64,000 nt of DNA from PVC group bacterium (GTDB taxonomy: Bacteria; Omnitrophota; Gorgyraeia; B26-G9): contig JAAEQR010000195.1 of the NCBI GenBank assembly GCA_024231215.1, positions 142,755-206,754 on the forward strand. Direction: 5' to 3'. The notes below the pieces were generated by a model that saw only the letters and a list, made by a program, of their open reading frames with translations, had not been told where the DNA came from and ran no database searches. Below, piece after piece: positions 1-60,800 of this stretch (its first letter is position 1; the number at the start of each line of letters is the position of its first letter). The position numbers were made by a program, and so were the translations under genes.

Positions 1-653
1 TTAGAGTTTTGCAGGGTGAACGCCAGATGGCTAATGACAATGTTGAATTAGGTCAGTTTAATTTAGAAGGCATTCCTCCTGCACCGCGTGGTATTCCGCA
101 GATCGAAGTTGGCTTTGATATTGACGCTAACGGGATTGTGCATGTATCGGCAAAAGATCTTGGGACAGGAAAAGAACAGTCTATAAGAATTACTGCTCCG
201 AAAAAACTATCCAAAGAAGAGATTGAAAAAATGGTTAAAGATGCAGAACAATTTGCCGAAGCTGATGCTAAGAAAAAAGAAGAAGTAGAATCTCGTAATC
301 AGGCAGAACAGCTTGTTTATGCTACAGAAAAATCTCTAAAGGATTATGGGGATAAGGTTAGTGCGGAGGAGAAGGAAGCTATTGAAAAGAAAACAGCTGA
401 ATTAAAAGAAGCGTTAAAAGGAACTGATATTGAGGCGATAAAGAAAACACAGGAAGAACTAGGCAAAGCTTCGCATAAGTTAGCAGAAGCAGTTTATAAA
501 GCTCAGGCGGAACAACAGCAGCAACAGCAACAGGCTGCTGGAGCTGATGCCGGAGCGCAGGCGCAACAGCAGGAACAGTCTCAGGCAGAAGAAGATGCAA
601 AAAAGCCGGAAGATGTAGTTGACGCTGAATACAAGGTAGAAGAAGAAAAATGA
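1..653 (+). CDS. dnaK: Molecular chaperone DnaK, C-terminal portion (5' end lies outside window; reading frame starts at nt 3)
   Basis: Translation ...[93 protein letters not shown]... matches the conserved Hsp70 substrate-binding/lid region. It has the Q/A-rich tail and the terminal [10 protein letters not shown]. The frame is open to the window edge. Confidence 0.92.
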
Positions 654-660
654 GCAAGCT

Positions 661-737
661 AATAGCTAATAGTCAATAGCTAATAGTCAATAATCAATAA
701 CCAATAATCAATTAGCCATAAGCCATTAGCTATAGAC
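661..737. repeat. Array of about 11 tandem degenerate heptamers (AATAGCT/AATAGTC/AATAATC/AATAACC...) filling the dnaK-dnaJ spacer
   Basis: Read directly: aatagct aatagtc aatagct aatagtc aataatc aataacc aataatc aattagc cataagc cattagc tatagac. It starts 8 nt after the dnaK stop (651-653) and ends 9 nt before the dnaJ ATG. Confidence 0.7.
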
Positions 738-745
738 TGGAAAAT

Positions 746-1885
746 ATGACGAAAAGAGACTATTACGAAATATTGGGTGTAAGTAAAACTGCATCAGTGG
801 ATGAGATAAAAAAATCATACCGTAAATTGGCGATGAAATATCATCCGGATCGTGTGTCTGAGGATAAACGTAAAGAAGCAGAAGAACAGTTTAAGGAAAT
901 ATCTGAGTCATATGCAATCTTGTCCGATCAGGATAAGCGTTCAAAATACGATCAATTCGGACATGCCGGAATAAACAATCAATACTCATCAGAAGATATT
1001 TTCCGCGGAACTGATTTTGGTTCGATTTTTGAAGACTTTGGCGGTGGCGGTGGTATTTTTGAAGAACTGTTTTCCGGGTTTGGCGGAGGAGGCGGCAGAA
1101 GGCGCCAAGGACCTAGGCGTGGAGCAGATCTTGAATATCCGCTGAATATAACATTTGAAGAAGCAGCTGTAGGTATAGAGAAGAAGTTTTCCATAAGGCG
1201 CAAAGAAACCTGTAATACATGCAACGGCGAAGGTGCTCAGCCTGGTACAAAGAAAGCTACATGTCTTGTTTGTCAGGGCAGCGGCCAGGTTTCGCAGTCT
1301 GCGGGATTTTTTAGTATTGCCCGCACTTGTGAAAGATGCCGTGGAGAAGGACAGATAATTGAAACGCCATGTAAGACTTGTAGAGGCGGTGGAACTGTTC
1401 CGGTAGATAGAAAAATACAAGTAAAGATTCCTGCAGGTGTAGATAGTGGAGCGCACTTGCGTGTGCGGGGAGAAGGTGAACCTGGCGCAAAAGGCGGACC
1501 TCGCGGAGATCTCTATGTAACTATTCGATTGAAAAAACATGATCTTTTTGAGCGGCATAATAGTGATGTATATTGCAAAGTTCCGGTTAGTTTTGTAAAA
1601 GCAGCTTTAGGCAGTGAAATTGAAGTTCCGACAATATATAAAGAAAAAATAAAGATGAAAGTTCCAGCTGGGACCCAAAGTGGCAAGATGTTTCGTTTGA
1701 GTGGTAAGGGGTTTCCTGATTTGCGCGGATATAATAAAGGAGATGCTTATGTAGTGGTTAATATCTCTGTGCCGACAAAGATCAATGCTCAACAAAAGAA
1801 ATTACTGCTTGAATTCGCCAAGCTAAGCGGAGAAGACGTAACCCAGGGATCATTTACAGAAAAAATTAAGAAGGCTTTTAAGTGA
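746..1885 (+). CDS. dnaJ: Co-chaperone DnaJ (J domain, G/F-rich linker, four CxxCxGxG zinc-finger repeats, C-terminal domain)
   Basis: MTKRDYYEILGV...KKSYRKLAMKYHPDR J-domain with the HPD motif. A Gly/Phe-rich stretch follows, then CNTCNGEG, CLVCQGSG, CERCRGEG, CKTCRGGG. Confidence 0.93.
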   Translation: MTKRDYYEILGVSKTASVDEIKKSYRKLAMKYHPDRVSEDKRKEAEEQFKEISESYAILSDQDKRSKYDQFGHAGINNQYSSEDIFRGTDFGSIFEDFGGGGGIFEELFSGFGGGGGRRRQGPRRGADLEYPLNITFEEAAVGIEKKFSIRRKETCNTCNGEGAQPGTKKATCLVCQGSGQVSQSAGFFSIARTCERCRGEGQIIETPCKTCRGGGTVPVDRKIQVKIPAGVDSGAHLRVRGEGEPGAKGGPRGDLYVTIRLKKHDLFERHNSDVYCKVPVSFVKAALGSEIEVPTIYKEKIKMKVPAGTQSGKMFRLSGKGFPDLRGYNKGDAYVVVNISVPTKINAQQKKLLLEFAKLSGEDVTQGSFTEKIKKAFK

Positions 1886-1975
1886 AGATACAACTTAGGG
1901 GAGTTTTTACGAAAGTAAGTTGTATATTACTATGTGTTAACAAAAACAGAGTCTTTGACATCACAAAAACACGTC

Positions 1976-2081
1976 TTTGCGCTAAGTCCGCAGCGGCATC
2001 GTGCCTTGCGGCCGCGCGTCTCGCCTATTTTTACATCCGTGTAAAAATTACGGCTCAAAGCGCCGCTTAAAGAGAATTTTT
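1976..2081. repeat. Copy A of a roughly 105-nt conserved intergenic element (candidate small RNA / REP-like element), directly 3' of dnaJ
   Basis: cgctaagtccgcagcggcatcgtgccttgcggccgcgcgtctcgcctatttttacatccgtgtaaaaattacggctcaaagcgccgcttaaag...agaattttt aligns at about 75% identity, co-linear, with 54405-54541. Confidence 0.55.
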
Positions 2082-2163
2082 GTGCTATCTATTATTAAGT
2101 TTACTTTGTTAGAATAGTTATGGTTTATCTTTGATTTTTAAATGTATTAACCGGAGGTTAATT

Positions 2164-2490
2164 TTGCCAACATATGATTATGATTGTGATAAATGCGGAG
2201 TGTTTGAAGTTTTTCAGATGATGTCAGCTGAAAAATTCACAGAGTGTCCTCAATGCGGCTCTAAGAAAATTAAGCGTTTGATTGGAGCAGGTATGGGTAT
2301 TATTTTCAAAGGTACCGGATTTTACGAGACAGACTATAAACGCAAGGAAAACAAATCAAAAACTAAAGATATTGCTAATACAAATAAATCCGAAGCAAAA
2401 ACTGAATCAAAGCCTGAGGCTAAATCTAAAGGCGAAACTGATTCTAAACCCAAACCAGCTGAATCAAAAAAACAAAATGATAAAAAATAA
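2164..2490 (+). CDS. FmdB-family putative regulatory zinc-ribbon protein with a Lys/Ser/Glu-rich low-complexity tail
   Basis: TTG start preceded by GGAGG (2153-2157). N-terminus MPTYDYDCDKCGVFE...ECPQCGS is the canonical FmdB CxxC...CxxC signature. The ORF-track ATG at 2131 would add a non-conserved leader. Confidence 0.7.
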   Translation: MPTYDYDCDKCGVFEVFQMMSAEKFTECPQCGSKKIKRLIGAGMGIIFKGTGFYETDYKRKENKSKTKDIANTNKSEAKTESKPEAKSKGETDSKPKPAESKKQNDKK

Positions 2491-2836
2491 ATTTGTTTAT
2501 TATTGGATGCCGGTAATTATCTGGGCGGTACTTATTTTTATTGTCTCATCAATTTCGACTTTCCCTGAGTCGATCCAACCGGTCATCTCATTTGATAAAT
2601 TCTGGCATACTGTAGAATATGGAATATTAGCTTTTTTCCTGGCGCGGGCCTTTAAAAATTCCTCCCGGGAAGATTTTAAGCGTAATTTCCGGCTACTTGC
2701 CATTATTTTTACCGTATTTTACGCTATTTCCGATGAATTCCACCAATCTTTTGTTCCTATGCGCACAGCCAGCATTATTGATGTATTGTTTGACAGCCTC
2801 GGTGCGGTATTGGGACACCTTATTGTGCGTAAATAG
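2477..2836 (+). CDS. VanZ-like family membrane protein
   Basis: MIKNKFVYYWMPVIIWAVLIFIVSS...HTVEYGILAFFLARAF...SDEFHQSFVPMRTASIIDVLFDSLGAVLG is the typical VanZ architecture and motif set. The internal ATG is in frame with the 2282 ORF and overlaps the FmdB end by 14 nt. Confidence 0.7.
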   Translation: MIKNKFVYYWMPVIIWAVLIFIVSSISTFPESIQPVISFDKFWHTVEYGILAFFLARAFKNSSREDFKRNFRLLAIIFTVFYAISDEFHQSFVPMRTASIIDVLFDSLGAVLGHLIVRK

Positions 2837-2854
2837 GGGGTTTCCATTTCCCCC
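2836..2854 (+). terminator. Possible intrinsic terminator hairpin (GGGGG-tttccattt-CCCCC) after the VanZ-like gene
   Basis: 5-bp G/C stem with a 9-nt loop immediately after the stop. The trailing U-tract is weak (ttaatc). Confidence 0.3.
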
Positions 2855-2915
2855 TTAATCTGATACAATAAAAAGTTATTACAAATCATTAATAACTACT
2901 GACAGGAGATTCAAA

Positions 2916-4178
2916 ATGGCTAATATTTCTCCGTTTCGCGGATTACGTTACAACACAAAAAAAATAAAGAATATCAATAAAGTATTTGCACCGCCGTATG
3001 ATGTAATTTCTGAGGCAGAACGAGACAAGCTTTATAAACAGCATTCCAATAATGTGATTAAACTTATTCTCGGTAAGCAGTCTAAAAAAGACACGGTGAA
3101 GAATAATCGTTATACCCGGGCTAAAGCTGATTTTTTCCAGTGGATAGACGATGAAATTATGATTTTCGACGAAAAACCAAGCATTTATGTCTATACACAG
3201 GACTATACCTTTGAAGGTGTAAAGAAAAAAAGAATTGGGTTTGTCTCGTGTTTACGTTTTGACGATAAAGATGAAGGGTGCTTGCCGCATGAGCAGACAT
3301 TAGCTAAGCCAAAAAAAGACAGAATTCAACTGATGCAGTCTGTAGAGGCAAACTTAAGCCCGATATTTTCTTTTTATATTGATAATAAAAATGCGATTGA
3401 TACGGTTTTAAAACCTTATACTAGAAAGAAAGCCCTTATTGACTATACAGATAAAGATAATATTAGACATAAATTCTGGAAAGTAGATGATGTCAAGACG
3501 ATCAGCAAAGTAAAGACTTTAATGAAGGGCAAGCGAGTGTTTATTGCTGACGGTCATCATCGGTATGAAGTATCCCGTTCTTACTATGAGCAAATGCGCA
3601 AAAAATCAAAAGCAGGCAATCATAATCAGGTAATGGTTTACTTTACAGGGTTTAATGAAGAAAATTTGAGTGTTATGCCTACTCATAGGCTGGTAAAAGG
3701 AGTGAAAAACCTTGATGCAAGGATGAAGGATATTGAAAAATACTTTACTAAAACCCCTTGCAAGAACTTAAATGACATGCTTGCCAAGCAAGCAAAGGAG
3801 AAGGGTTTTACATTGGGCATGTGTTTTAAGGGTAAGTTTAATGTATTGACGATGAAAGATAATGTCTTACTTAACCGCTTAATGCGCAAGTCTCCCTCTC
3901 AGTGGAAAAAGCTTGATGTAGCAATGTTAAATAAAGTAGTGTTTGAACATATTTTTAAACTAAACGCTTCTCAAAAAGAAGAGAAGATCAGCTATACTCG
4001 TGATGCTCAGTTTGCGGCAACCGCGGTTAAAAAGAAACTGGCTGATGTGGCCTTTTTCCCTAATCCAACCAAGGCAGACCAGGTGAAAAAGATAGCTTTG
4101 GCTAAATACCGCATGCCTCAAAAATCCACATATTTTTATCCTAAGCCTATAACGGGACTAGTGATACATAAGTTCTAA
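2916..4178 (+). CDS. DUF1015 family protein (conserved, function unknown)
   Basis: N-terminus MANISPFRGLRYN...FAPPYDVIS and DGHHRYE are hallmark DUF1015 motifs. AGGAG RBS upstream. Confidence 0.75.
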   Translation: MANISPFRGLRYNTKKIKNINKVFAPPYDVISEAERDKLYKQHSNNVIKLILGKQSKKDTVKNNRYTRAKADFFQWIDDEIMIFDEKPSIYVYTQDYTFEGVKKKRIGFVSCLRFDDKDEGCLPHEQTLAKPKKDRIQLMQSVEANLSPIFSFYIDNKNAIDTVLKPYTRKKALIDYTDKDNIRHKFWKVDDVKTISKVKTLMKGKRVFIADGHHRYEVSRSYYEQMRKKSKAGNHNQVMVYFTGFNEENLSVMPTHRLVKGVKNLDARMKDIEKYFTKTPCKNLNDMLAKQAKEKGFTLGMCFKGKFNVLTMKDNVLLNRLMRKSPSQWKKLDVAMLNKVVFEHIFKLNASQKEEKISYTRDAQFAATAVKKKLADVAFFPNPTKADQVKKIALAKYRMPQKSTYFYPKPITGLVIHKF

Positions 4179-7557: not shown

Positions 7558-8598
7558 ATGCAGAAAAATATTTTGGGTCCAGTAGATCAGTTTTATTTAA
7601 TTGGAGGAGGAAGGCTTCTTTTTGAATTATCTGTTTGGCTAAAGTCCCAAGGAATTAAGGGGAGCATTATTGCTGCTGAGCGTCATGCGAAAGAAGAAGT
7701 TCTTGAGGATGATAGGACCTTAGAGCAATTAGCGAAAGAAGCACAGATAGAGATACATATAATAGAAGATATAAATAATATTCCCGATAATTCTAAAAGG
7801 ATCAATTTTACGGATACAAGCTTTGCTCTTTCTCTAGGCGCTGCGTGGATATTTAAAGAGCAGACAATAGAGAAACTTTTTAAAAACAGGTTGTTTAATT
7901 TGCATGGGTCAAGGCTGCCTCAATATCGTGGTGGTGGGGGCTTTTCTTGGCAGATATTACGAGGCAATCGCTTGGGGTTTTGTCTGATCCATTTTATAGA
8001 TGGGGGTGTAGATACAGGCAATATTTTAAAATATGAGGAGTTCTTATATCCTGCAGATTGTAGGATACCTTTAGATTACGAAGAGTGTTATAGAAAAAAC
8101 AATCTAGAATTTATGCAGAAGCTATTTAAAAAATTAGTGAAAGGGTCCATAACATTTCAACCAGTAGCACAACAGGAATATTTTTCTGCTTATTGGCCTA
8201 GATTGCATTCGCCGACACATTCCTGGATTGACTGGTCAATGCCTTTAAATGAGTTAGATAGATTTATTTGTGCTTTTGATGATCCCTATTGTGGAGCGCA
8301 AACTACTAGTGACGGGTCTTTGGTTTACTTAAAAAAGACTATGACAGATAATAATGATGGTAATTTTCATCCATTTCAATATGGTTTAGTTTACCGAAAT
8401 AATGGGAAATGGCTTTCTGTTGCTGCAAATGGTGGGACTATTATTATCCAAAGTGTTACCGGCAAGGATGGACAGGATTTGATTAGATCGATTAAGTCGG
8501 GTGACAGATTTTTTACTCCTGTCGAAAAACTTGAAGAAGCTTGTAGTCAACGTATCTTTTATACCCCTAGGGGATTATGCGAAGGAAGGAAGCCTTAG
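7558..8598 (+). CDS. Formyltransferase-fold protein (Formyl_trans_N-like N-terminus plus C-terminal extension); candidate sugar N-formyl/acyl transferase
   Basis: FNLHGSRLPQYRGGGGFSWQILRGNRLGFCLIHFIDGGVDTGNI resembles the N.HxSLLPxYRG...HxxxxxxDxG core of Fmt/ArnA-like formyltransferases. AGGAGGA RBS before the ATG at 7558. Confidence 0.55.
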   Translation: MQKNILGPVDQFYLIGGGRLLFELSVWLKSQGIKGSIIAAERHAKEEVLEDDRTLEQLAKEAQIEIHIIEDINNIPDNSKRINFTDTSFALSLGAAWIFKEQTIEKLFKNRLFNLHGSRLPQYRGGGGFSWQILRGNRLGFCLIHFIDGGVDTGNILKYEEFLYPADCRIPLDYEECYRKNNLEFMQKLFKKLVKGSITFQPVAQQEYFSAYWPRLHSPTHSWIDWSMPLNELDRFICAFDDPYCGAQTTSDGSLVYLKKTMTDNNDGNFHPFQYGLVYRNNGKWLSVAANGGTIIIQSVTGKDGQDLIRSIKSGDRFFTPVEKLEEACSQRIFYTPRGLCEGRKP

Positions 8599-9958: not shown

Positions 9959-10864
9959 ATGAACGAATCTTCTTGTTCGATAGTTTTAGGTACCGTACAG
10001 CTTGGTTTTTCTTATGGGATAGCTAATAAAACAGGCCAGCCGGATCAGGAAACAGTCAATAACATTGTGCGTATAGCCTGGAAACAGGGTATAAGAGAGT
10101 TTGATACGGCTCAGGATTATGGAGTAAGCGAGCAGGTTCTTGGGATTGCTTTTGAAAAACTGGGTATATCATCGCAGGCAAGGGTTATCAGTAAGATAGA
10201 TCCTGAAATAGATCATTGTGATCGGGAAGTGATGGTTAAAGCAGTTGAAACATCTTTGACAAAAATGTGTATACCAAATCTTTTTGGCTTAATGCTACAC
10301 AAAGAAGAATTGTTGGAACAATGGTCAAAAGGATTAAAAGATATATTTCTTGGATTTAGAACTTCAGGAAAAGTTAAAAAACTGGGGGTGTCTGTGTATT
10401 CACCGGATAAAGCGGAAGAGGCTTTGAATCTAGAAGGGATTGATCTCGTACAGATTCCCTCCAATATCCTGGATAGAAGATTTGAAAGAAAAAATATTTT
10501 TGAGCTCGCTAATACGAAAAAAAAACAGATTTATATAAGAAGTGTTTTTTTACAGGGTCTTATCCTTATGGGAGAGGGAGAAATCCCTGACTATATGCTT
10601 TTCGCAAAACCAATTATTGATAAGATAAAGCAGCTTTCTTTAAAGTTGAATATGTCTAAACAGGAGCTGGCTTTATTATATTTAAAACAAAAAGCTCCTG
10701 ATGCAAAACTGGTTATCGGATCAGAAACAAGTCAACAGGTCATGAAAAATGTTGATTGCTGGAGGAAAGATGCTTCGAAGGAGCTGGTTTCATCTGTATC
10801 AGAGACCTTTGACCAGGTGGATGAAAAGATTCTTAATCCGTCGTTATGGAGAAGTAAATCATGA
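9959..10864 (+). CDS. Aldo/keto reductase family oxidoreductase
   Basis: LGTVQLGFSYGIANKTGQPDQETV...REFDTAQDYGVSEQVLG typical AKR N-terminus. About 300 aa. Confidence 0.7.
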   Translation: MNESSCSIVLGTVQLGFSYGIANKTGQPDQETVNNIVRIAWKQGIREFDTAQDYGVSEQVLGIAFEKLGISSQARVISKIDPEIDHCDREVMVKAVETSLTKMCIPNLFGLMLHKEELLEQWSKGLKDIFLGFRTSGKVKKLGVSVYSPDKAEEALNLEGIDLVQIPSNILDRRFERKNIFELANTKKKQIYIRSVFLQGLILMGEGEIPDYMLFAKPIIDKIKQLSLKLNMSKQELALLYLKQKAPDAKLVIGSETSQQVMKNVDCWRKDASKELVSSVSETFDQVDEKILNPSLWRSKS

Positions 10865-12654
10865 TAATTACGTTTATTCAGGCCAGAATGTCTTCAACCC
10901 GTTTTCCGGGTAAAGTGCTTAAACATATACTGGGCAAACCAATCCTGCAATTACAGATTGAGAGAGCCCGGGCCTGTAAAACCGTAGACAAAGTAGTTGT
11001 GCTTACCAGTATTTCTGAAGATGACCGGCCGATTGTGGATATGTGTAAAAAGATTAATGTGGATTTTTTTTGCGGCAGTCTGGAAAATGTTTTGGATAGA
11101 TTTTATCAGGCGGCAGTAAAGTTTAAACCGGATCATATTATTCGCCTGACAGGAGATTGCCCTTTAATTGATGCCAAAGTTATTGATGATATGGTTAAGC
11201 TCTATTTAAAAGAAGAAGGAGATTATGGTACCAATTGTGTTCCCGTAACTTATCCGGATGGATTAGATGCGGAGATTCTTACATTTAAAGCACTTCAAGT
11301 CGCGCATACTGAGGCAGTGCTTCCGTCTCATCTGGAGCATTTAAGCCTCTTTTTTGAGGAACAGTCGGAGCGTTTTAAAATAGTGAATTTGGCAAATAAT
11401 ACTGATCTTTCTTCGCTGCGCTGGACAGTAGACGAATCAGAGGATTTCGAATTTGTAAAGGCAATATTTGAGGAACTCTATCCTAAAAAACCCTTATTTT
11501 GCATGCAGGATGTTCTGGACTTGCTCAAAAGAAGGCCTGAGCTGATTTTGCTTAATAATCGTTTTAACAGGAATGAGGGGCTGTTTAAATCAAAAGAACA
11601 AGATAATGTTTTTCTTGAAGGGAAAACTTCAACTAATATGTCTAATACTGTTTCGATTTTATTCAGAGTGGATGTGTATGAAAAATTGGGGTTGGGACAC
11701 TTGTCCCGGTGCAGGTCATTAATGGCGGCTTTTTTGCATTACTCCGAATGTCAATTTGCGGTATTAAGCAATAATGAAACAGTGGTTAGAGAGTTTATCC
11801 CAAATATTGCGTTTGATTTTTACCATAACCGTAATGAACTGAAAAATACTAATTTTGATATTCTAATAGTGGATGTGCCTGATATCGCGTCTGGAGAAGA
11901 TGAAGATTTCCGGGGAGTGGCAAAATTAGTTGTTTGTATCGAGGATGCAGGCCGGGGCTTAAGTTATCAGAATATTCTTATTCGTCCGAATCTGCTTAAT
12001 TTACCGATAAGTCCTAATCTGAAAATAGCAAAGAATAATTACTGGTCGGGACGGGATTATATAATTTTGCATAATGATTTTGCGAAACAGGTTGTTCGTA
12101 ACGATGTGCCTAAAGAAAAAGCCGAAGAGTTACTGCTCTGTTTCGGCGGTAGTGACCCTTGTGGATTGACTTTACGTGCAATACCGCTGTTTAAAGAGCT
12201 TGAAGGTAATATTAGTTTTCATGTAGTGATTGGTCCAGCATTTTCATGGAAGGATGAGGTTTCTTCTATAATCAATGATGATGCTCGTTTTCATTTAAGC
12301 ATTAACTGCCAGAATATGGCAGAACATTTTTCTAAAGCGGATATCGCTTTAATTAGCGGAGGCACAATGCTCTATGAGGCTTGTGCGATGGGAACACCTG
12401 CGTTAGTTTTTTCGCAAAACCAAGAGCAGGAGATTGAAGCCAAAATATGCCAGGCAGCAGGGGCGGTTGCGAGCCTTGGTGTAAGTAAGTCTGTTTCAGA
12501 TGATAAAATTTTTAGTGCGGTAAAGAAAATTATCAGGGATACCGATTTGCGGTTGAATATGGCAAAAGCAGGGCCTAAAATTGTATCCTCTGACGGAGCC
12601 GCGCACATTGTGTCTAGTTTACTTAAATATATCAAAAAAGAGAGCATAAAATGA
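10861..12654 (+). CDS. Fusion protein: SpsF/FlmC-like cytidylyltransferase domain plus PseG/SpsG-like UDP-2,4-diacetamido-2,4,6-trideoxy-L-altropyranose hydrolase domain (CMP-nonulosonic acid activation)
   Basis: N-terminal IITFIQARMSSTRFPGKVLK...LTGDCPLID (CMP-KDO-synthetase-like nucleotidyltransferase fold). C-terminal LLCFGGSDPCGLT...ISGGTMLYEACAMGTPALV (GT28-C/PseG-like). Confidence 0.7.
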   Translation: MIITFIQARMSSTRFPGKVLKHILGKPILQLQIERARACKTVDKVVVLTSISEDDRPIVDMCKKINVDFFCGSLENVLDRFYQAAVKFKPDHIIRLTGDCPLIDAKVIDDMVKLYLKEEGDYGTNCVPVTYPDGLDAEILTFKALQVAHTEAVLPSHLEHLSLFFEEQSERFKIVNLANNTDLSSLRWTVDESEDFEFVKAIFEELYPKKPLFCMQDVLDLLKRRPELILLNNRFNRNEGLFKSKEQDNVFLEGKTSTNMSNTVSILFRVDVYEKLGLGHLSRCRSLMAAFLHYSECQFAVLSNNETVVREFIPNIAFDFYHNRNELKNTNFDILIVDVPDIASGEDEDFRGVAKLVVCIEDAGRGLSYQNILIRPNLLNLPISPNLKIAKNNYWSGRDYIILHNDFAKQVVRNDVPKEKAEELLLCFGGSDPCGLTLRAIPLFKELEGNISFHVVIGPAFSWKDEVSSIINDDARFHLSINCQNMAEHFSKADIALISGGTMLYEACAMGTPALVFSQNQEQEIEAKICQAAGAVASLGVSKSVSDDKIFSAVKKIIRDTDLRLNMAKAGPKIVSSDGAAHIVSSLLKYIKKESIK

Positions 12655-16869: not shown

Positions 16870-17879
16870 AAAGGAATTGGAAAATAAAATCAGGGGTTTT
16901 AACAAAGATAAAAAATCTTTATAAAAAAGGTGGATTAAATCCCAGGTTTTATGCGTATCGCTATTGTTTCAATAGCTATCCTGATAATTTCAAGATCAGC
17001 AAATATCCATTTGATATAATTGCGGAGGCTTCTAATGTTTGCAACCTGAGATGCTCCATGTGCTTTCAGGTCGATGATGAACTTCCGGTTCGGACAACGA
17101 CAAAAGTTCCTTTCATGAAGATGAATTTGTTTAAAAAAATTACTGATGAATGTGCGAAATATAAGGTACCTGCTTTAAAATTAAGTTGGCGGGGTGAGCC
17201 AATGTTAAATGAAAACTTCACAGAAATGATCAGATATGCAAAATCCAAAGGGATCTTAGAGGTTACGTCTTTAACTAATGCGACATTAATGCATGAAAAT
17301 ATTTGCCGGGAAATTGTATCTGCAAAAATGGATCAGATTGTTATTTCCATAGATGGTTTTACAAAAGAGACATATGAAAAAATCAGGATTGGTGCTGATT
17401 ATGACGTTGTGTGTAATAATATAAAAAATTTACTTAAAATAAGAGGAAAGTCAAACAAGCCTTTTATTAGATTGCAATATACGGAATCTGATATAAATAA
17501 GCATGAAACAGAGAGATTTTATCATTATTGGAAAGATAAGGTCGATGAAATAACTGTGTCGTATTGTCAGGATTTTGGCTCTACTGAGAAGATTGATCCC
17601 GAGGATATTCCGGCACATAGCTTTGTTTGCAAACAGCCTTTTCAGCGCTTGGTTATTATGACTGACGGGACTGTTTGTGTTTGCGCTACAGATGTTATGG
17701 GTGAAATTTCAATAGGCAATATCCAGGACTCAAAGCTTATAGATTTATGGAATTGTTCTAAAATTAATGAGCTTCGCCAACAGCATAAGGCAGGGAAATA
17801 TCAGCATAATCCAATGTGTCGTATTTGCGTGCATAATGTATTCATGGCCAACAAAAATGCGGGTCTTTCTGTTAAATAA
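16866..17879 (+). CDS. Radical SAM enzyme with C-terminal SPASM-type domain (paralog 2)
   Basis: CNLRCSMC motif. C-terminal CKQPFQRLVIMTDGTVCVCATDVMGEI...CSKIN...CRICVH. Similar length and architecture to the upstream gene. ATGA start/stop overlap. Confidence 0.75.
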   Translation: MKRNWKIKSGVLTKIKNLYKKGGLNPRFYAYRYCFNSYPDNFKISKYPFDIIAEASNVCNLRCSMCFQVDDELPVRTTTKVPFMKMNLFKKITDECAKYKVPALKLSWRGEPMLNENFTEMIRYAKSKGILEVTSLTNATLMHENICREIVSAKMDQIVISIDGFTKETYEKIRIGADYDVVCNNIKNLLKIRGKSNKPFIRLQYTESDINKHETERFYHYWKDKVDEITVSYCQDFGSTEKIDPEDIPAHSFVCKQPFQRLVIMTDGTVCVCATDVMGEISIGNIQDSKLIDLWNCSKINELRQQHKAGKYQHNPMCRICVHNVFMANKNAGLSVK

Positions 17880-29622: not shown

Positions 29623-30592
29623 ATTAGTAAGTGTAATTATTACAAGTTATAATCATGGTGAGTATTTAAAAGAGCGTTTGGATACTATCCTGGGACAGAC
29701 TTATAAAAATATTGAAATTATTGTAGTAGATGATTGTTCGATAGATAATAGCCTTGAGGTATTAAAGGGTTATGCTGGTTATTCGAATGTGAAGGTGATT
29801 GCACTTAAAGAAAATGTCGGATATGCCCTTGCTTGCCACAAGGGAGTAGGCGAAAGTAAGGGAAATTTTATTATTTTTGCTGAATCTGACGACTTTAGTG
29901 AACCTGAGCAGATAGAAATGCTCTTTGACGTAATAGTAAAAGATGAACGTATCGGAGTTGCCTGGTGCAGAAGTAATATCGTAGATGAAAATGGAAAAGT
30001 GCTAGGTGATGATTATTCAGGACGAGAAAAATCCTTTCGTCTGATGTGCAAAGAGAGCACATTTATAAGAAAAGAATATATGCAGAGGCTTTTTTTGTCT
30101 TCTTGCGTTATTCCGAATATGAGCGCTGCGCTTTTAAGAAGGTCTTTTTTTGAGCAAACAGGGGGACTTTCTCCTAATTATAAAGCTTGTGCGGATTGGG
30201 ATTTTTGGAATAGGATGGCAATGGTTTGTGATTTTTTTTATATTACAAAAACTTTAAATAATTTTAGAACACATGGGCAAACCGTAAGGAATACTTTTGA
30301 ATCAAATCTTCAGGCACAAGAGATTCTTAAACTTACAGCTGATGCCAGCAATACGGTTTATTCAACGAGAAAAGGGCGATTAAAGTCATGTTTTAATTTG
30401 GGCTATATTGGGGCATATATGATTATTTATAGTTTAGGGAATAGGTTTAAAAATGCTATTTTTATTTATAAGGAAGGCAGTCGATATGTAGGTTTTTTTA
30501 TTTTTTTTCTACTGTTTGGGTTCTTAAAAAATTTCTGGAAATACATAGGTATGGTTTTTAATAGACAAGTATTTTTAAAAGGTTGGTTTTAA
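29615..30592 (+). CDS. Glycosyltransferase family 2
   Basis: VSVIITSYNHGEYLKERLDTILGQTYKNIEIIVVDDCSIDNS... and the DxD region FAESDDF. Confidence 0.75.
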   Translation: MSELVSVIITSYNHGEYLKERLDTILGQTYKNIEIIVVDDCSIDNSLEVLKGYAGYSNVKVIALKENVGYALACHKGVGESKGNFIIFAESDDFSEPEQIEMLFDVIVKDERIGVAWCRSNIVDENGKVLGDDYSGREKSFRLMCKESTFIRKEYMQRLFLSSCVIPNMSAALLRRSFFEQTGGLSPNYKACADWDFWNRMAMVCDFFYITKTLNNFRTHGQTVRNTFESNLQAQEILKLTADASNTVYSTRKGRLKSCFNLGYIGAYMIIYSLGNRFKNAIFIYKEGSRYVGFFIFFLLFGFLKNFWKYIGMVFNRQVFLKGWF

Positions 30593-30594
30593 CA

Positions 30595-31581
30595 ATGGGA
30601 ACAGGTAATGTGATAAAAAATACCGAAGAGTTTTATGATCAACGTTACTCTAAGGGTTATATGGAAGAATGGCCTTTAGAGCAAAAACAGAGGGTTTTTA
30701 AGCTAATCAGAGAGCTGAATTTGCCAGAAACTGGAAAAGTTTTGGATTTTGGCTGTGGCAACGGAGAATTTACAAGTGTTTTAAAACAGGCGTTACCAGG
30801 AGGGGATGTAACTGGAGTTGATATAAGTTCTGTAGCTATTGAAAATGCCCGGAAACGTTATCCTGAATGCTCATTTTCGCTGATCAGTGAGCTTAGTTCA
30901 CAGAATAAAGAATTTGATTTTTTATTCACTCATCATGTGCTTGAGCATGTAAGTGATATTGATAGCACCTGGCTTGAGATCAATAAAGTTTTAAAAGATA
31001 AAGCTCATGTCCTTCATATCCTGCCGTGCGGTAATACCGGCAGCTTTGAATATATGCTCTGCATGTTAAAGCGTGACGGAATTGAAAAAAATTTTTGTAA
31101 CAGGTTTTATTTTGAAGATAAAAGTCATTTACGGCGATTAACCTCAGCTCAAATGAATGAACTGGCATCTAAATATTCTTTTAAGTCAGAGTTTGCGTAT
31201 TTCAGCAATCACTTTTATGGGGCAATTGACTGGATCAGCTCAGCTAGGCCCGAGACAATATGGCAAATATTTAATCCGCAGAAATCTGCTGATATGTTTT
31301 CTTCTCTTAAATTGATTGGTTTCTTGATTTTATTTATGTTTATTAAAGTAATGCGTTTTCCGGCAAATACAATAGATTATAAGATAAAAAGTTTAAAAAG
31401 TTATCAGTATTACTTTTTCTTGTTAATATTTTTACTCATTTATCCGTTATCGAAATTGATAAACATTTACTTGAAGTATAAAACTCGAATAGAATGGAAG
31501 AATAATAGAAATGAAATAAACGGAAGTGAAATGTATATTTATTATAAAAAGATAGGATCTATACAAAAAGGAGGTTTTTAA
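30595..31581 (+). CDS. Class I SAM-dependent methyltransferase with a hydrophobic C-terminal tail; its last ~80 codons are duplicated at 32482-32706
   Basis: VLDFGCGNGEFTSVL (motif I), DFLFTHHVLEHV. The C-terminal ...MFIKVMRFPANTIDYKIKSLKSYQYYFFLLIFLLIYPLSKL... is repeated downstream. Confidence 0.65.
   Translation: MGTGNVIKNTEEFYDQRYSKGYMEEWPLEQKQRVFKLIRELNLPETGKVLDFGCGNGEFTSVLKQALPGGDVTGVDISSVAIENARKRYPECSFSLISELSSQNKEFDFLFTHHVLEHVSDIDSTWLEINKVLKDKAHVLHILPCGNTGSFEYMLCMLKRDGIEKNFCNRFYFEDKSHLRRLTSAQMNELASKYSFKSEFAYFSNHFYGAIDWISSARPETIWQIFNPQKSADMFSSLKLIGFLILFMFIKVMRFPANTIDYKIKSLKSYQYYFFLLIFLLIYPLSKLINIYLKYKTRIEWKNNRNEINGSEMYIYYKKIGSIQKGGF
31336..31575. repeat. Direct repeat copy 1 (about 220 bp; a roughly 100-bp core is near-identical to 32494-32590)
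   Basis: atgcgttttccggcaaatacaatagattataagataaaaagtttaaaaagttatcagtattactttttcttgttaatattttt is shared with copy 2 with only 2-3 mismatches. The flanks diverge but stay co-linear. Confidence 0.8.
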
Positions 31582-32438: not shown

Positions 32439-32481
32439 TGTTAAATTTAAGGCATAGTTGATATAGTTATAGTGCGTATTT

Positions 32482-32702
32482 GTGTTCATTGTAATAATGC
32501 GTTTTCCTGTAAATACAATAGATTATAAGATAAAAAGTTTAAAAAGTTATCAGTATTACTTTTTCTTGTTAATATTTTTGCCTATTTATCCGTTTTCAAA
32601 ACTAATGAATTTTTATTTACAGGATAAGTCGGAACAGGAATGGAAGAAGAAAATAAATAAGAATAACGGAAGCGAAATGTATTTATACTACAAAAGGATA
32701 TT
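32482..32702. repeat. Direct repeat copy 2 (partner of 31336-31575), flanking the FkbM methyltransferase gene
   Basis: See copy 1. Confidence 0.8.
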
Positions 32703-47282: not shown

Positions 47283-49760
47283 ATGGCAAAACAGATATTA
47301 AAAAACGGATTTAGAAATATTTGCGTATATTTAACTTGTCTGGGGTTATTGTTAAGTGCGGCTTTGCCGATGGCAGTTGCCTATGAGCCCGATGAGGGTC
47401 GTGAAAAACTGAAACAGGTAATGCGGGATTCAGATCTTTCCGAAGAAGAATCTAATTTGCTAAATGAAGAAATGCAAGGGGATGAAGGGATAGAGGGTGA
47501 AGAACCGGAAGAAGCTGATCTTGGTGAAGAAAGCAAAGAAGATGAGAAGATGTTAGAAGAGGAAGAATTGGCCAAGAATATTCCGAATATATCTTCCCTG
47601 GAACAGATGTTTGAGGGGAAAGCATCGCTTGATCTTTCTCGTTCCATAAAACAGTTTGGATATGATATTTTTCAGGCATCTTCTACCTTTGCGCCGGTAC
47701 AAAATGTTCCGGTGGGGCCGGATTATGTTATTGGTTCCGGAGACAGCTTGATTGTTTATATCTGGGGGAAAGTTGTTCAGGAAACATTTAACGTAAAAGT
47801 AGACAGGGACGGCAAAATTACGTTACCTAAATCTGGTAATATCTATGTTTGGGGTTTAAAATTTTCTGAGGTTGAGAAGTTAATTAAAAACACACTTGCT
47901 CAGCATTATGCGAATTTACAGATTAGTGTGACTATGGGCAGGCTGCGATCGATAAAGGTGTTTGTTTTGGGTGATGTTACCCGGCCGGGAGCTTATACAA
48001 TGAGTTCACTTTCGACGGTGTTCCACTCTATCTATGAGGCTGGCGGCCCGACAAAATTAGGCAGTATGCGTTTTGTAAAGCTGATTCGGAATAATGAGAC
48101 TATCGATACGATTGATCTTTATAACTTTTTGTTAGAAGGGGATAAAAGTCAGGATCATAAGCTGCTTTCTAATGATACGATATTTGTTCCTTCGATTGGC
48201 CGGGTTGCCGGTGTTGCCGGAAGAGTAAAACGCCCGGGTATTTATGAGATAACGCAGGATGTGAAAATGAGTGAGCTGATAAAAATGAGCGGCGGGCTTA
48301 CACCTGAAGGTTATGTTCAGCGTATACAATTAGAACGTATTCAGGAGCGTCAGCGTAGAGTGGTTATTGATCTAAAATTAAAAGATATTGATGAATTAGA
48401 AAATTCTCAGGAGGATATTGCCATTCAGGATGGTGATTTAGTGCTGATTTTTTCTATTCTGCCTGAAAAATATAATTTTGTTTCAGTAAGTGGTAATGTG
48501 TTTAGACCGGGAGATTATGAATTTACAGCGCAAATGAGAGTTAAGGACTTGCTGGATAATGCCGGAGGTATTTCCGTGGGGACTTACTTGGAAAGAGCTG
48601 AACTTTTTAGATATAAAGATGATCGTTCTAGAGAAGTCATCCCTGTGAATTTAAAAGTACTTTTACAGGGAAAAGACGAAAAGGAAAATTTATTATTGCA
48701 GGACTGGGACGATTTGGTGGTTTACGCGAAAAGTGATGTTTTGCCGGAGCGCTATGTACAGATAAGCGGGGCAATATATAAGCCGGGTGAGTATGAGCTT
48801 ACTTCGAACATGAAGATCAATGATTTAATTTTTAGGGCTGGAAATTTAAAACAAACAGCTTCTTTAGCGAATGCGGAATTATTTCGCGTGGGCAACGGAG
48901 AAGGGACAAAAATATACAGCCTTGATCTTTCTAAAAAAATAGGGGGAGATAGCTGCCCTTATAAGATATTACTTCATGAGGATGATCACTTATATATCAG
49001 AGAAGAAAAGGAGCGGAGAGAGAAGAGGATAATTACACTTAAAGGGGAAGTGAAGTTTCCCGGGGAATATGTGGCTGCGAAAGATGAGAGTTTAAGTTCA
49101 ATTGTTAAGCGTGCCGGTGGGTTTACAAAAGAGGCATTTTTAAAAGGTGCGGTTTTTACACGTGAATCTGTAAAGGAAGTTCAGCAGCAAATGGTGGATA
49201 GATTTATTGCCTCGGAGAAAAAATCGCTTCTGCAGCTTGAATCTAAATTGGAGAAGAGTGATATTTCGCAGGCAGAACAGCAGGAAAAAGAAACTACATT
49301 CCAGCGCAGAAAAGAACTAGTGGAGCTTGTATCTTCGATAGAGGTTGTGGGGCGTATGGTGATTGATCTGAAAGATCCTTATGAGTTGAGTGGTACACAG
49401 AGTGATGTAGTGATTGAAGACGAAGATATATTGTATGTCCCTCCGGTGCCTTCTTCAGTCCAGATTGTGGGCAGTGTATATAATCCAACATCTGTTGTTT
49501 TCGAAACGGAAAAGACAATGAAATATTATTTGAAGAAGGCGGGTGGTTTCACTAAAAACGCTGATAAAAAATCGATTTATATTGTACGTGCAAATGGAGA
49601 AGTTGAATCGGAATTTGTACGAATACAGGAAGTAGACAAAGGGGATACGATTGTAGTTCCCGAAGAGTTTAAGACAAAGACACAATGGGGTAAACTGTGG
49701 CTAGATACAACACAGATAATGTATAACATGGCTGTGGGTGCTGCGGTGGTATTGGACTAA
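47283..49760 (+). CDS. Polysaccharide export protein (Wza/Poly_export family) with multiple SLBB domains, 825 aa, signal peptide
   Basis: Signal peptide, ...PVGPDYVIGSGDSLIVYIWGK...DGKITLPKSGNIYVWGLKFSEVEKLIKN (Poly_export motif). Repeated PG.Y soluble-ligand-binding beta-grasp-like units (VRPGDYEFT, YKPGEYELT, KFPGEYVAA). Confidence 0.8.
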   Translation: MAKQILKNGFRNICVYLTCLGLLLSAALPMAVAYEPDEGREKLKQVMRDSDLSEEESNLLNEEMQGDEGIEGEEPEEADLGEESKEDEKMLEEEELAKNIPNISSLEQMFEGKASLDLSRSIKQFGYDIFQASSTFAPVQNVPVGPDYVIGSGDSLIVYIWGKVVQETFNVKVDRDGKITLPKSGNIYVWGLKFSEVEKLIKNTLAQHYANLQISVTMGRLRSIKVFVLGDVTRPGAYTMSSLSTVFHSIYEAGGPTKLGSMRFVKLIRNNETIDTIDLYNFLLEGDKSQDHKLLSNDTIFVPSIGRVAGVAGRVKRPGIYEITQDVKMSELIKMSGGLTPEGYVQRIQLERIQERQRRVVIDLKLKDIDELENSQEDIAIQDGDLVLIFSILPEKYNFVSVSGNVFRPGDYEFTAQMRVKDLLDNAGGISVGTYLERAELFRYKDDRSREVIPVNLKVLLQGKDEKENLLLQDWDDLVVYAKSDVLPERYVQISGAIYKPGEYELTSNMKINDLIFRAGNLKQTASLANAELFRVGNGEGTKIYSLDLSKKIGGDSCPYKILLHEDDHLYIREEKERREKRIITLKGEVKFPGEYVAAKDESLSSIVKRAGGFTKEAFLKGAVFTRESVKEVQQQMVDRFIASEKKSLLQLESKLEKSDISQAEQQEKETTFQRRKELVELVSSIEVVGRMVIDLKDPYELSGTQSDVVIEDEDILYVPPVPSSVQIVGSVYNPTSVVFETEKTMKYYLKKAGGFTKNADKKSIYIVRANGEVESEFVRIQEVDKGDTIVVPEEFKTKTQWGKLWLDTTQIMYNMAVGAAVVLD

Positions 49761-49788
49761 TCTCGTATTTAGTATCTAGTATCTCGTG
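49761..49788. repeat. Four tandem heptamers (tctcgta tttagta tctagta tctcgtg) starting 1 nt after the Wza-like stop codon
   Basis: Read directly from sequence. Confidence 0.5.
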
Positions 49789-52786: not shown

Positions 52787-53263
52787 ATGGCTGCAGGAGA
52801 TGTATTTTTAACACGTGATGGATATGAAAAATTAAAAAAAGAATATGAACATCTAAAAAAAGTAAAACGTCCGGAAATATCAAGGGCAATAGAAAAGGCA
52901 AGAGAATTTGGAGATCTGAAAGAAAACGCAGAATATCATGCGGCTAAAGAAGCTATGGGCATGAGCGAAGCGCGGATTTCTGAACTCGAAGATATAATTA
53001 GCCGTGGCCGGATAGTGGATGATGAGAATATAGATAAAGATAAAGTATTGCTTGGCGCGACAGTAAAGATTCGTGATGTTGCCGATAATGAAATAGAAGA
53101 ATATATGCTTGTCTCAGAGGCAGAAGCTGACTTTAGCCAAAACAAGATATCAACGGCTTCTCCGTTAGGGCAGGGTATTCTAGGGCATAAAAAAGGTGAT
53201 ATTGTGCAGGTGAAGATTCCCGCTGGCATGATGACAATTGAAATATTGGAAATAACAAGATAG
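52787..53263 (+). CDS. greA: Transcription elongation factor GreA
   Basis: LTRDGYEKLKKEYEHLKKVKRPEISRAIEKAREFGDLKENAEYHAAKEAMGMSEARISELEDII...SPLGQGILGHKKGDIV. 158 aa. GAGGAG RBS. Confidence 0.9.
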   Translation: MAAGDVFLTRDGYEKLKKEYEHLKKVKRPEISRAIEKAREFGDLKENAEYHAAKEAMGMSEARISELEDIISRGRIVDDENIDKDKVLLGATVKIRDVADNEIEEYMLVSEAEADFSQNKISTASPLGQGILGHKKGDIVQVKIPAGMMTIEILEITR

Positions 53264-53271
53264 AGAAACAG

Positions 53272-53300
53272 TCGATAGTCAATGGTCAATAGTCTATAGA
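53272..53300. repeat. Four tandem heptamers (cgatagt caatggt caatagt ctataga) of the same AATAGTC-type unit as in the dnaK-dnaJ spacer, starting 9 nt after the greA stop
   Basis: Read directly from sequence. The unit is a phase-shifted AATAGTC. Confidence 0.55.
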
Positions 53301-53337: not shown

Positions 53338-53357
53338 GGGCGGCCGGCTGGCCGCCC
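53338..53357 (+). terminator. Intrinsic terminator candidate after greA (GGGCGGCC-ggct-GGCCGCCC, then gttattaatatatt)
   Basis: 8-bp all-G/C stem with a 4-nt loop and an A/U-rich tail. Confidence 0.5.
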
Positions 53358-55011: not shown

Positions 55012-55156
55012 TGTTCCCCTTTCGTTTTTTACTAATAATTAAATTATAACGATCCATACCCTACAGGATTATATTACTATGTTACTATGTTTCTAGGTTT
55101 TGTCAAGAGAGTAGGTTGAATTGACAAATGAGCTTAAGAGGATTAAACTAAGGAAC

Positions 55157-57583: not shown

Positions 57584-57811
57584 ATATTGGAATGTAACAC
57601 AAATACCATTTCTTGTCAATTCGGACAGAAAGTAAATTGGCAGAAATTCAAAAGGTGTGGTATACTTCATCTAAGAGGATCGGTGCAAGCATAGGTTACG
57701 TTTTAAGGTTTGAGAGGTTTTGAAAAAGGTTCACAAGCTTAAATAGTAGGTAAGGCACCGTTCCTCCTTTTTATGCCCATTTCCCCCTGAATATCCCCGA
57801 TATTTGTGCTC

Positions 57812-57840
57812 TTGATACCTATAGGCGTTTGTGTTAAGAT
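57812..57840 (+). promoter_or_regulatory. Candidate sigma70 promoter for uvrA (TTGATA-17nt-TAAGAT) ending 7 nt before the ATG (leaderless-type geometry)
   Basis: Read from sequence. No SD between the -10 box and the ATG at 57848. Confidence 0.35.
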
Positions 57841-57847
57841 TTATCTC

Positions 57848-60655: not shown

Positions 60656-60800
60656 ATAAGCTGTAAGTTGTAAGATAGAAGGACTAAAAGTGCAACTCAA
60701 AAATATAAAGTGTAATATAATAGAGATGTGCTATAGTTGTTAAAACATGTTTTTGTGTTTTAACGTTTAACCCATATGTTTTTGTTTAGCGAAAATTAAA

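Follow-up and report, generated by a model that had tools for sequence, protein, structure and literature searches.

Tandem arrays of seven-nucleotide units stand directly behind stop codons at three places in a 64-kb stretch of a genome of Candidatus Omnitrophota (contig JAAEQR010000195.1, positions 142,755 to 206,754 of the forward strand; this whole stretch is hereafter called the window), namely between dnaK and dnaJ, behind greA, and behind a gene for a Wza-like polysaccharide export protein. The arrays belong to the already known class of heptanucleotide simple sequence repeats (SSRs), which includes the short tandemly repeated repetitive (STRR) sequences of cyanobacteria that they resemble, and what appears to be new is their occurrence in Omnitrophota. 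The array between dnaK and dnaJ contains an inverted copy of its own units and is predicted to fold into a hairpin, and a hairpin is predicted at the same junction in most relatives, whatever the sequence there. On balance we lean toward a reading in which strand slippage generated the arrays and in which, at the dnaK–dnaJ junction, an intercistronic stem–loop uncouples the expression of the two genes.

The spacer between dnaK and dnaJ (654–745, 92 nt) is filled by its array. The eleven units at 661–737 read AATAGCT AATAGTC AATAGCT AATAGTC AATAATC AATAACC AATAATC AATTAGC CATAAGC CATTAGC TATAGAC, and the 7-nt phase begins already at 657, which gives 11–11.5 units in all. Its period-7 self-match score is 25, whereas 30 Markov shuffles of the whole window gave 11 at most; none of the other periods between 4 and 12 comes close in this spacer, and the array was also called by Tandem Repeats Finder (TRF). 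The array behind greA (AGTCGAT AGTCAAT GGTCAAT AGTCTAT AG) scores 11 and is marginal when taken alone, while the one behind the Wza-like gene (TCTCGTA TTTAGTA TCTAGTA TCTCGTG) scores 10, inside the shuffle range of the whole window. Considered jointly, three of the 24 intergenic spacers in the window (2,919 nt in total) score at least 10 at period 7 against 0.026 expected, and none of 500 shuffles gave more than one such spacer. A 21-mer of three AATAGTC units, searched with up to three mismatches, occurs in the window only at 668–702 and 53267–53294 against an expectation of 0.00, and the AATAGYY unit family is therefore truly common to the dnaK–dnaJ and greA arrays. An original prediction made from the letters of this DNA had described three non-coding arrays starting 1–9 nt past stop codons, an AATAGTC-type unit shared by the first two, and a different four-unit array behind the Wza-like gene; all of this is borne out by the sequence, the TRF calls, the period-7 scores, the joint spacer test, and the open reading frame (ORF) and Pfam context, the Wza array being the weaker case.

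That prediction had also set aside two familiar kinds of element, and rightly so. Clustered regularly interspaced short palindromic repeats (CRISPR) consist of repeats of ∼23–50 nt with unique spacers of similar length, whereas the window units measure 7 nt and are contiguous, and the controlling inverted repeat of chaperone expression (CIRCE; TTAGCACTC-N9-GAGTGCTAA) had 0 matches at up to three mismatches across the whole window. The operon promoter lies upstream of the window, to judge from the order hrcA-grpE-dnaK-dnaJ in relatives. A phase-variable contingency locus was considered and rejected as well: the arrays are outside ORFs, 654–745 holds no promoter-like site, and the units are imperfect. 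In annotation, such arrays should be entered as a repeat class and should not be taken for regulatory operators or for the remains of a CRISPR array.

The last four "units" of the dnaK–dnaJ array (ATTAGCC ATAAGCC ATTAGCT ATAGACT) repeat the first units (AGCTAAT/AGTCAAT) in reverse complement, and they hold the 7-nt phase because ATTAGCTAAT is nearly palindromic. The predicted run of eleven head-to-tail units thus survives as a period-7 array, and has to be corrected in that the array is not purely direct. In a repeat search five inverted pairs came up that overlap one another in different registers; the best joins 671–684 with 725–738 (14 nt, 93% complementarity), and RNAfold places 24 pairs between 655–686 and 709–739 at −16.1 kcal/mol. 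The predicted hairpin begins 2 nt after the dnaK stop codon and leaves the dnaJ start region (741–750) unpaired (pairing probability 0.04). Folded alone, the spacer has a z-score of −2.59 and its energy was reached by 0 of 100 shuffles; in a longer fragment that includes coding flanks the z-score is −1.69, and 12 of 200 shuffles reached the observed energy. Behind the AU-rich stem comes GGAAAATATG rather than a T-run, so that the stem is not a canonical intrinsic terminator, and a scan of positions 1–3000 for terminator and promoter consensus sequences gave no site within 654–745. No Rfam family reached its gathering score anywhere in the window; by E-value, a microRNA hairpin matched at chance level on the minus strand at 671–738 (19.7 bits against a threshold of 97), and nothing matched at greA.

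The window DnaJ is 100% identical to a protein of an NCBI metagenome-assembled genome labeled "PVC group bacterium", and its next relatives, at 70–75% identity, are all Candidatus Omnitrophota. For comparison, 80 dnaJ loci (designated by L and a number) were taken from species-representative genomes, ∼36 of them from Omnitrophota and the remainder serving as control, and the lineage tests rest on these relatives' loci and the window rather than on the whole source genome. Relatives keep the gene order hrcA-grpE-dnaK-dnaJ-Zn ribbon-VanZ-DUF1015-HD-greA. When the dnaK–dnaJ spacers of the window and of 20 relatives, one of them from Chloroflexi, were folded, 18 of the 21 gave z-scores between −2.5 and −10; the remaining three were L019, with a spacer of 61 nt and a z-score of −1.78, and L003 and L007, whose spacers are the shortest of the set, and a stable hairpin is predicted in nearly all relatives' spacers of at least 50 nt. 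The construction varies. A forward heptamer array is followed by its reverse-complement array in the Omnitrophota loci L023, L057, L013, L027, L030, L039, and L012, and likewise in the Chloroflexi locus L050, and about nine of the folded spacers, L004 among them, count as built in this way; there are variants with a period of 9 (L025) or 8 (L055, the complete genome of Velamenicoccus archaeovorus), and ordinary stems, some with T-runs (L004, L005, and L006). An ATAGCGT/ACGCTAT family occupies the dnaK–dnaJ spacer of three species whose DnaJ proteins are 59–68% identical, with ∼2+3.5, 4.5+4.5, and 4+1 copies in the two arms, and in two of these species the stop codon of dnaK (TAG) doubles as the first unit; this locus joins persistence of a unit with variation in its copy number.

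Some other arrays may be recorded here. In L039 eight perfect TAAGGAT units, with a Shine–Dalgarno-like AAGGA, precede dnaJ (7791–7848), and L003, with arrays at 9975–9991 and 16924–16955, has CCCCAAC units in its dnaK–dnaJ spacer and also telomere-like TTTAGGG-type units. When metagenomes were scanned with a 24-mer taken from the start of dnaJ, seven contigs of other species with grpE–dnaJ junctions were retrieved. In the unrelated organisms behind L084 and L085 an array of ∼4 units (ACGCGAA ACACGAA) lies between the grpE stop and the dnaJ start, and the two loci differ by a single base within it.

The excess of period 7 extends well beyond this junction. Among 28 loci labeled as Omnitrophota (394 kb), 31 period-7 arrays reached a score of at least 12, against 0–7 arrays for each other period from 4 to 12. 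Across 36 loci including the window, the 70.7 kb of intergenic DNA contain 44 period-7 arrays and the 485.5 kb of ORFs contain 23 (0.62 versus 0.047 per kb, a ∼13-fold difference), and period 7 accounts for 44 of the 62 intergenic arrays. An independent TRF run again made period 7 the largest class, with 60 arrays in 556 kb, followed by the coding-compatible periods 12 (28 arrays) and 9 (21 arrays). Heptamer arrays are also present in loci of Syntrophales, Desulfobacterota-type organisms, Gammaproteobacteria, Chloroflexi, and Acidobacteriota, where they are clustered in particular genomes. Identical consensus units, with rotation and strand allowed, were found in 7.4% of the array pairs within a locus and in 0.41% of those between loci; recurring families include CAAAAGT (four times) and GAGTAGN (twice) in L004, GACTATS (three times) in L079, and AGGCTGA (three times) in L071. 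The spacers flanking greA in relatives carry heptamer arrays of other units, CAAAWTC in L004 and, upstream of greA, GACTATT in L005.

The position of the arrays is biased as well. Of those between co-directional genes, 22 have at least 40 nt of slack, and 10 of these start no more than 10 nt past the upstream stop codon where 2.2 would be expected, so that the proximity to stops first noticed in the window extends to relatives; proximity to the start codon is not enriched in this set (4 observed, 2.2 expected). It is possible, if doubtful, that the arrays are neutral debris of slippage left in the least constrained part of each spacer, after the stop and away from the next ribosome-binding site (RBS) or promoter, and that the hairpin is an accident of a near-palindromic unit. 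The stop bias does weaken when the last 25 or 35 nt ahead of the start codon are barred to arrays (3.6 or 5.2 expected), yet it remains significant (P = 0.0004 and 0.004), and P is at most 0.004 under three null models. The imperfection of the arrays, the difference of unit sequences between genomes, the absence of structure at greA and Wza, and the moderate significance of the window hairpin all sit comfortably with neutrality. The inverted partners do not, since a two-unit inverted copy lies within 200 nt of 18 of the 88 arrays, 12 times the expectation of 1.5, and neither do the hairpins in nearly all of the relatives' longer dnaK–dnaJ spacers or the retention of the ATAGCGT family in that spacer across species whose DnaJ has diverged considerably.

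The reading that we prefer, slippage-born heptamers with an uncoupling stem–loop between dnaK and dnaJ, would run as follows. Genome-specific families of 7-nt units would arise and change their copy number by strand slippage, and the arrays would survive in intergenic spacers that are transcribed, above all immediately behind the upstream stop. Between dnaK and dnaJ, the array and its inverted copy would form an imperfect stem–loop in the dicistronic mRNA, able to pair in several registers. Repetitive extragenic palindromic (REP) elements are palindromes that follow stop codons in operons and stabilize the upstream mRNA, and by analogy with these and with the hairpins of cyanobacterial STRR sequences the stem–loop would most likely act as a 3'-end-protecting or processing structure. 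The dnaK mRNA would then be longer-lived or more abundant than the dnaJ segment, which would set the DnaK:DnaJ ratio, and the ribosome-binding region of dnaJ would stay unpaired beside the stem–loop. In this scheme the slippage origin, the transcription through the spacer, and the effect on dnaK and dnaJ expression are what we infer from the arrays and their folding. If such a role is true, slippage in either arm would offer a simple route by which the stoichiometry of operon products could evolve. The predominant dnaK RNA from the dnaKJ operon of E. coli measures 2.1 kb and covers dnaK alone, and dnaJ levels are influenced by RNase III (PMC3082872). Two of the roles proposed in the original prediction are in keeping with this reading: a slippage-prone spacer agrees with the literature on heptanucleotide repeats, and a signal for transcript 3' ends, processing, or dnaJ coupling would suit the hairpin predicted here and those at the same position in relatives.

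Several observations weigh against slippage and an uncoupling hairpin. Where copy number could be compared between assemblies, there is no polymorphism, the arrays being identical in the eight assemblies of one relative (contigs with P0028) and the three of another (contigs with P0005), and no second assembly of the source species was found in the collections searched by exact-protein look-ups (DnaJ, GreA, DUF1015, and P0001), by a scan of genome contigs, which returned relatives only, and by the metagenome scan. The window arrays are imperfect (∼82% matches) and so may no longer slip. Slippage also leaves the period of seven and the enrichment of ATAG/AGTC-type units unexplained. The window hairpin is AU-rich and only moderately beyond its shuffles (z −1.7 to −2.6), and the sequences of the dnaK–dnaJ spacers cannot be aligned across relatives. 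An inverted repeat search gave no partner for the greA array, and the array between the Wza-like gene and wzi likewise lacks an inverted partner and shows no sign of folding (z +0.52), so that the role of a hairpin cannot be general. Finally, gene boundaries in the relatives were set by an ORF heuristic, and arrays that share a genome do not count as independent observations. As to assembly comparisons, an apparent length difference of 155 nt among those of the relatives was rejected, since it came from a stretch of Ns in a scaffold.

The greA and Wza arrays are treated here as single-arm (direct-only) members of the same repeat class, without evidence of a function of their own. There is a folding signal downstream of greA, which arises not from the heptamer array but from a separate GC-rich hairpin, GGGCGGCC-GGCT-GGCCGCCC (53338–53357, plus strand), between the array and the next gene; this may be a stem of the terminator type, though its T tail is weak.

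Regularly spaced units could also be read by a protein, and the original prediction had raised binding-site arrays for an RNA- or DNA-binding protein. In the form considered here, a sequence-specific protein with a 7-nt register, such as a HutP-like protein (UAG-N4-UAG) or one with a cold-shock domain and a footprint of 7 nt, would exert post-transcriptional control over the flanking genes, which we consider quite unlikely. UAG does recur at 7-nt spacing in the 5' arm of the dnaK–dnaJ array and in the greA and Wza arrays, and the triplets CTA/TAG, ACT/AGT, and GAC/GTC are enriched 2.2–2.5-fold in array units relative to background heptamers from intergenic DNA. The ATAG(Y)(Y) family of the window recurs at other spacers in L005, L013, L017, L079, and L099, and cold-shock proteins have been proposed to bind the TAACTGA heptamers of other bacteria (PMC4679880). 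The same family is found in both orientations relative to genes, however, the enrichment counts are not phylogenetically independent, and no candidate protein was identified within the 64-kb window. Single genomes also carry unrelated families (CAAAAGT and GAGTAGN in L004, CCCCAAC and TTTAGGG in L003, TAAGGAT and AGAGGAC in L039), which makes a single sequence-specific reader less likely. What still speaks for the proposal is the enrichment of ATAG/AGTC-type units.

A more ambitious version is speculative and, in our estimation, rather unlikely. Omnitrophota, and perhaps other phyla, would possess a dedicated heptamer system in which a conserved factor, either a protein or a nuclease, reads the ATAG/AGTC-type units or a specific mechanism spreads them, and arrays laid down from the stop codon onward as forward and inverted, register-slipping stems would serve as tunable and evolvable intercistronic hairpins that set operon expression. 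Such a system, if true, would give the 35-year-old puzzle of STRR and other heptamers a testable function. It would also explain the near-identity of the window unit AGTCAAT to the cyanobacterial STRR3 (CAACAGT; rotation AGTCAAC), which is one base away.

Given that one unit family occupies several spacers of a genome, and that forward and inverted arms make REP-like hairpins after stops, a mobile element might be suspected. This would be a dispersed element like REP, bacterial interspersed mosaic elements (BIMEs), or miniature inverted-repeat transposable elements (MITEs), with heptamer arrays for arms and spread by a transposase or by gene conversion. We find it very improbable: the copies share the 7-nt unit only, with no common flanks, ends, or fixed length, and no gene like those of REP-associated tyrosine transposases (RAYT) or IS200 turned up in the ORF list of the window, although no specific search for one was made.

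It is harder still to credit that the arrays are frame-independent back-up stops, in which TAG or TAA units at a period that is not a multiple of three would end read-through or frameshifted translation in all frames. The window units do contain TAG or TAA, and MacGregor noted the same property for TAACTGA (PMC4679880). In L099, moreover, three ATAGCTC units (11383–11405) overlap the end of an NFACT-R_2 gene and provide its stop codon. Among 30 arrays between co-directional genes, however, a stop triplet is present in 15 units in the sense direction against 20 in the antisense direction, and this lack of enrichment on the sense strand disfavors the idea; many units, such as CCCCAAC, CAAAAGT, and AGAAACC, have no stop triplet at all.

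The coordinates of the arrays, of the parts of the predicted hairpin, and of the adjoining genes are collected in Table 1, which includes a candidate fourth array below the significance threshold.

Table 1. Heptamer arrays, predicted hairpin parts, and adjoining genes in the window.
Feature	Coordinates	Strand	Basis and remarks
dnaK, 3' part (HSP70 C-terminus)	9..653	+	Stop TGA 651–653; Pfam HSP70 (E 1.8e-51); synteny in relatives
Period-7 array, AATAGCT/AATAGTC family	657..737	+	TRF; score 25
Predicted hairpin, 5' arm (AGCTAAT/AGTCAAT)	655..686	+	Inverted repeats I1–I5; RNAfold; arm pairing probability 0.62
Predicted loop, three degenerate units (AATAATC AATAACC AATAATC)	687..708	+	Pairing probability 0.05
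Predicted hairpin, 3' arm, ending 6 nt before the dnaJ ATG	709..739	+	Inverted repeats; RNAfold
dnaJ	746..1885	+	Pfam DnaJ, DnaJ_CXXCXGXG, DnaJ_C
Wza-like polysaccharide export gene	47283..49760	+	Stop TAA 49758–49760; Pfam Poly_export, SLBB
Weak four-unit heptamer array, 52 nt before wzi	49761..49788	+	TRF; score 10; joint spacer test
greA	52787..53263	+	Stop TAG 53261–53263; Pfam GreA_GreB_N, GreA_GreB
Direct heptamer array after greA, without inverted partner	53270..53299	+	TRF; score; family match
Candidate fourth array (ATAAGCT GTAAGTT GTAAGAT AGAAGGA)	60656..60683	+	Score 8, below significance threshold

The candidate fourth array lies at the start of the spacer 60656–60800 and abuts the stop codon (60653–60655) of a gene for a 949-aa protein (57806–60655). 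A single strong array of another period was seen among the window spacers, namely TATATTAC TATGTTAC TATGTTTC TAGGTTT, of period 8, at 55070–55100 (score 14), upstream of a gene that starts at 55121. Among the genes flanking the arrays, Pfam also confirms Wzi and HD.

Between DUF1015 and HD-greA the window contains a block of ∼48 kb (4180–52190) of genes for polysaccharide synthesis and export (glycosyltransferases, Polysacc_synt_2, Wza-like, Wzi), part of which has a lower GC content (0.32–0.36 at 18–42 kb, against 0.38–0.41 outside). DUF1015 adjoins HD-greA in five relatives (L003, L004, L005, L091, and L099), and the block therefore looks like an inserted island. Two direct copies of a 224-nt repeat (31331–31554 and 32477–32700; 81% identity, 1,146 nt apart) lie one at the end of the ORF 30583–31581 and the other in the spacer 32439–32702. 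Nearly all long ORFs of the window are on the plus strand and the GC skew is positive throughout (0.09–0.33), consistent with a segment of a single replichore with co-oriented genes.

Compared with known systems, the element between dnaK and dnaJ is like REP and BIME elements in forming a predicted hairpin just past a stop codon inside an operon. REP elements, however, are single palindromes of 20–40 nt, and the window elements are heptamer arrays; they have no sequence or Rfam similarity to REP or BIME elements or to the dnaK–dnaJ spacer of E. coli, which is structured (tpke11). Tandem repeats of heptanucleotides have themselves been known since 1990 in cyanobacteria and since 2007 from genome surveys.

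According to Mrazek (2007), in the account given in PMC4679880, heptanucleotide repeats are the most abundant class of long SSRs (LSSRs) in most repeat-rich prokaryotes, and a 7-nt contact with the DNA polymerase was proposed to favor slippage, an idea that also appears in PMC4692102. The window arrays are like the heptanucleotide LSSRs (Mrazek 2007; Huang & Mrazek 2014) in their 7-nt units, period-7 excess, and intergenic bias, and the sporadic phylogenetic distribution and proposed slippage origin of those repeats match as well, as these surveys are summarized in PMC4679880 and PMC4692102. The stop-proximal bias and the inverted arrays that build hairpins are features of Omnitrophota that apparently lie outside the LSSR description, as outlined in the same sources. 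A literature search that combined Omnitrophota with tandem repeats and intergenic found no report.

The STRR sequences of heterocystous cyanobacteria are 7-bp repeats, and hairpins formed by them between hupS and hupL were proposed to act in transcript stabilization or translational coupling (PMC2670836). The window arrays are like these in that intergenic families of 7-bp units are dispersed and can form hairpins between co-transcribed genes; phylum and unit families differ, and the window arrays are short (4–11 units) and imperfect. An assignment to STRR in the strict sense was rejected, the host being Candidatus Omnitrophota and the units AATAGCT, AATAGTC, and TCTAGTA. Intergenic heptamers of GGGAATC in Xanthomonas and GGGGAYT in Nostoc, some of them inverted (Rehm et al. 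2015, PMC4692102), provide another parallel: in Xanthomonas they lie between the same gene pairs in two species while length and sequence vary (PMC4692102), and the dnaK–dnaJ and greA spacers of the window, L004, L003, and L005 behave alike. The Xanthomonas and Nostoc units are G-rich and can form G-quadruplexes, whereas the window units are AT-rich without G-tracts and cannot.

Repeats of TAACTGA, found in marine Beggiatoaceae, some Cyanobacteria, and Bacteroidetes, precede start codons (MacGregor 2015, PMC4679880), and the proteins proposed to bind them are CsrA, ribosomal protein S1, and cold-shock proteins (PMC4679880). Like the window units, TAACTGA in Beggiatoaceae is a genome-specific intergenic heptamer, and it carries stops in all frames. 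The TAACTGA sets, however, mostly overlap the RBS upstream of starts and are predicted to be unstructured, whereas the window arrays abut stops and form a predicted hairpin at dnaK–dnaJ.

What the Omnitrophota add to these systems is the extension of heptamer repeats to an uncultivated phylum and three regularities that any explanation would have to accommodate: arrays that start at or just after stops, forward and inverted arrays that are often paired into predicted hairpins, and an ATAG/AGTC bias across distant genomes. In the window and its relatives at least three head-to-tail copies, an excess of period 7, an intergenic location, and a dispersed unit family are all found, as in the heptanucleotide SSR class. 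These properties match those of the heptanucleotide SSRs, the cyanobacterial STRR sequences, and the heptamers of Xanthomonas and Beggiatoaceae, and the window arrays are thus members of a class that has already been described.

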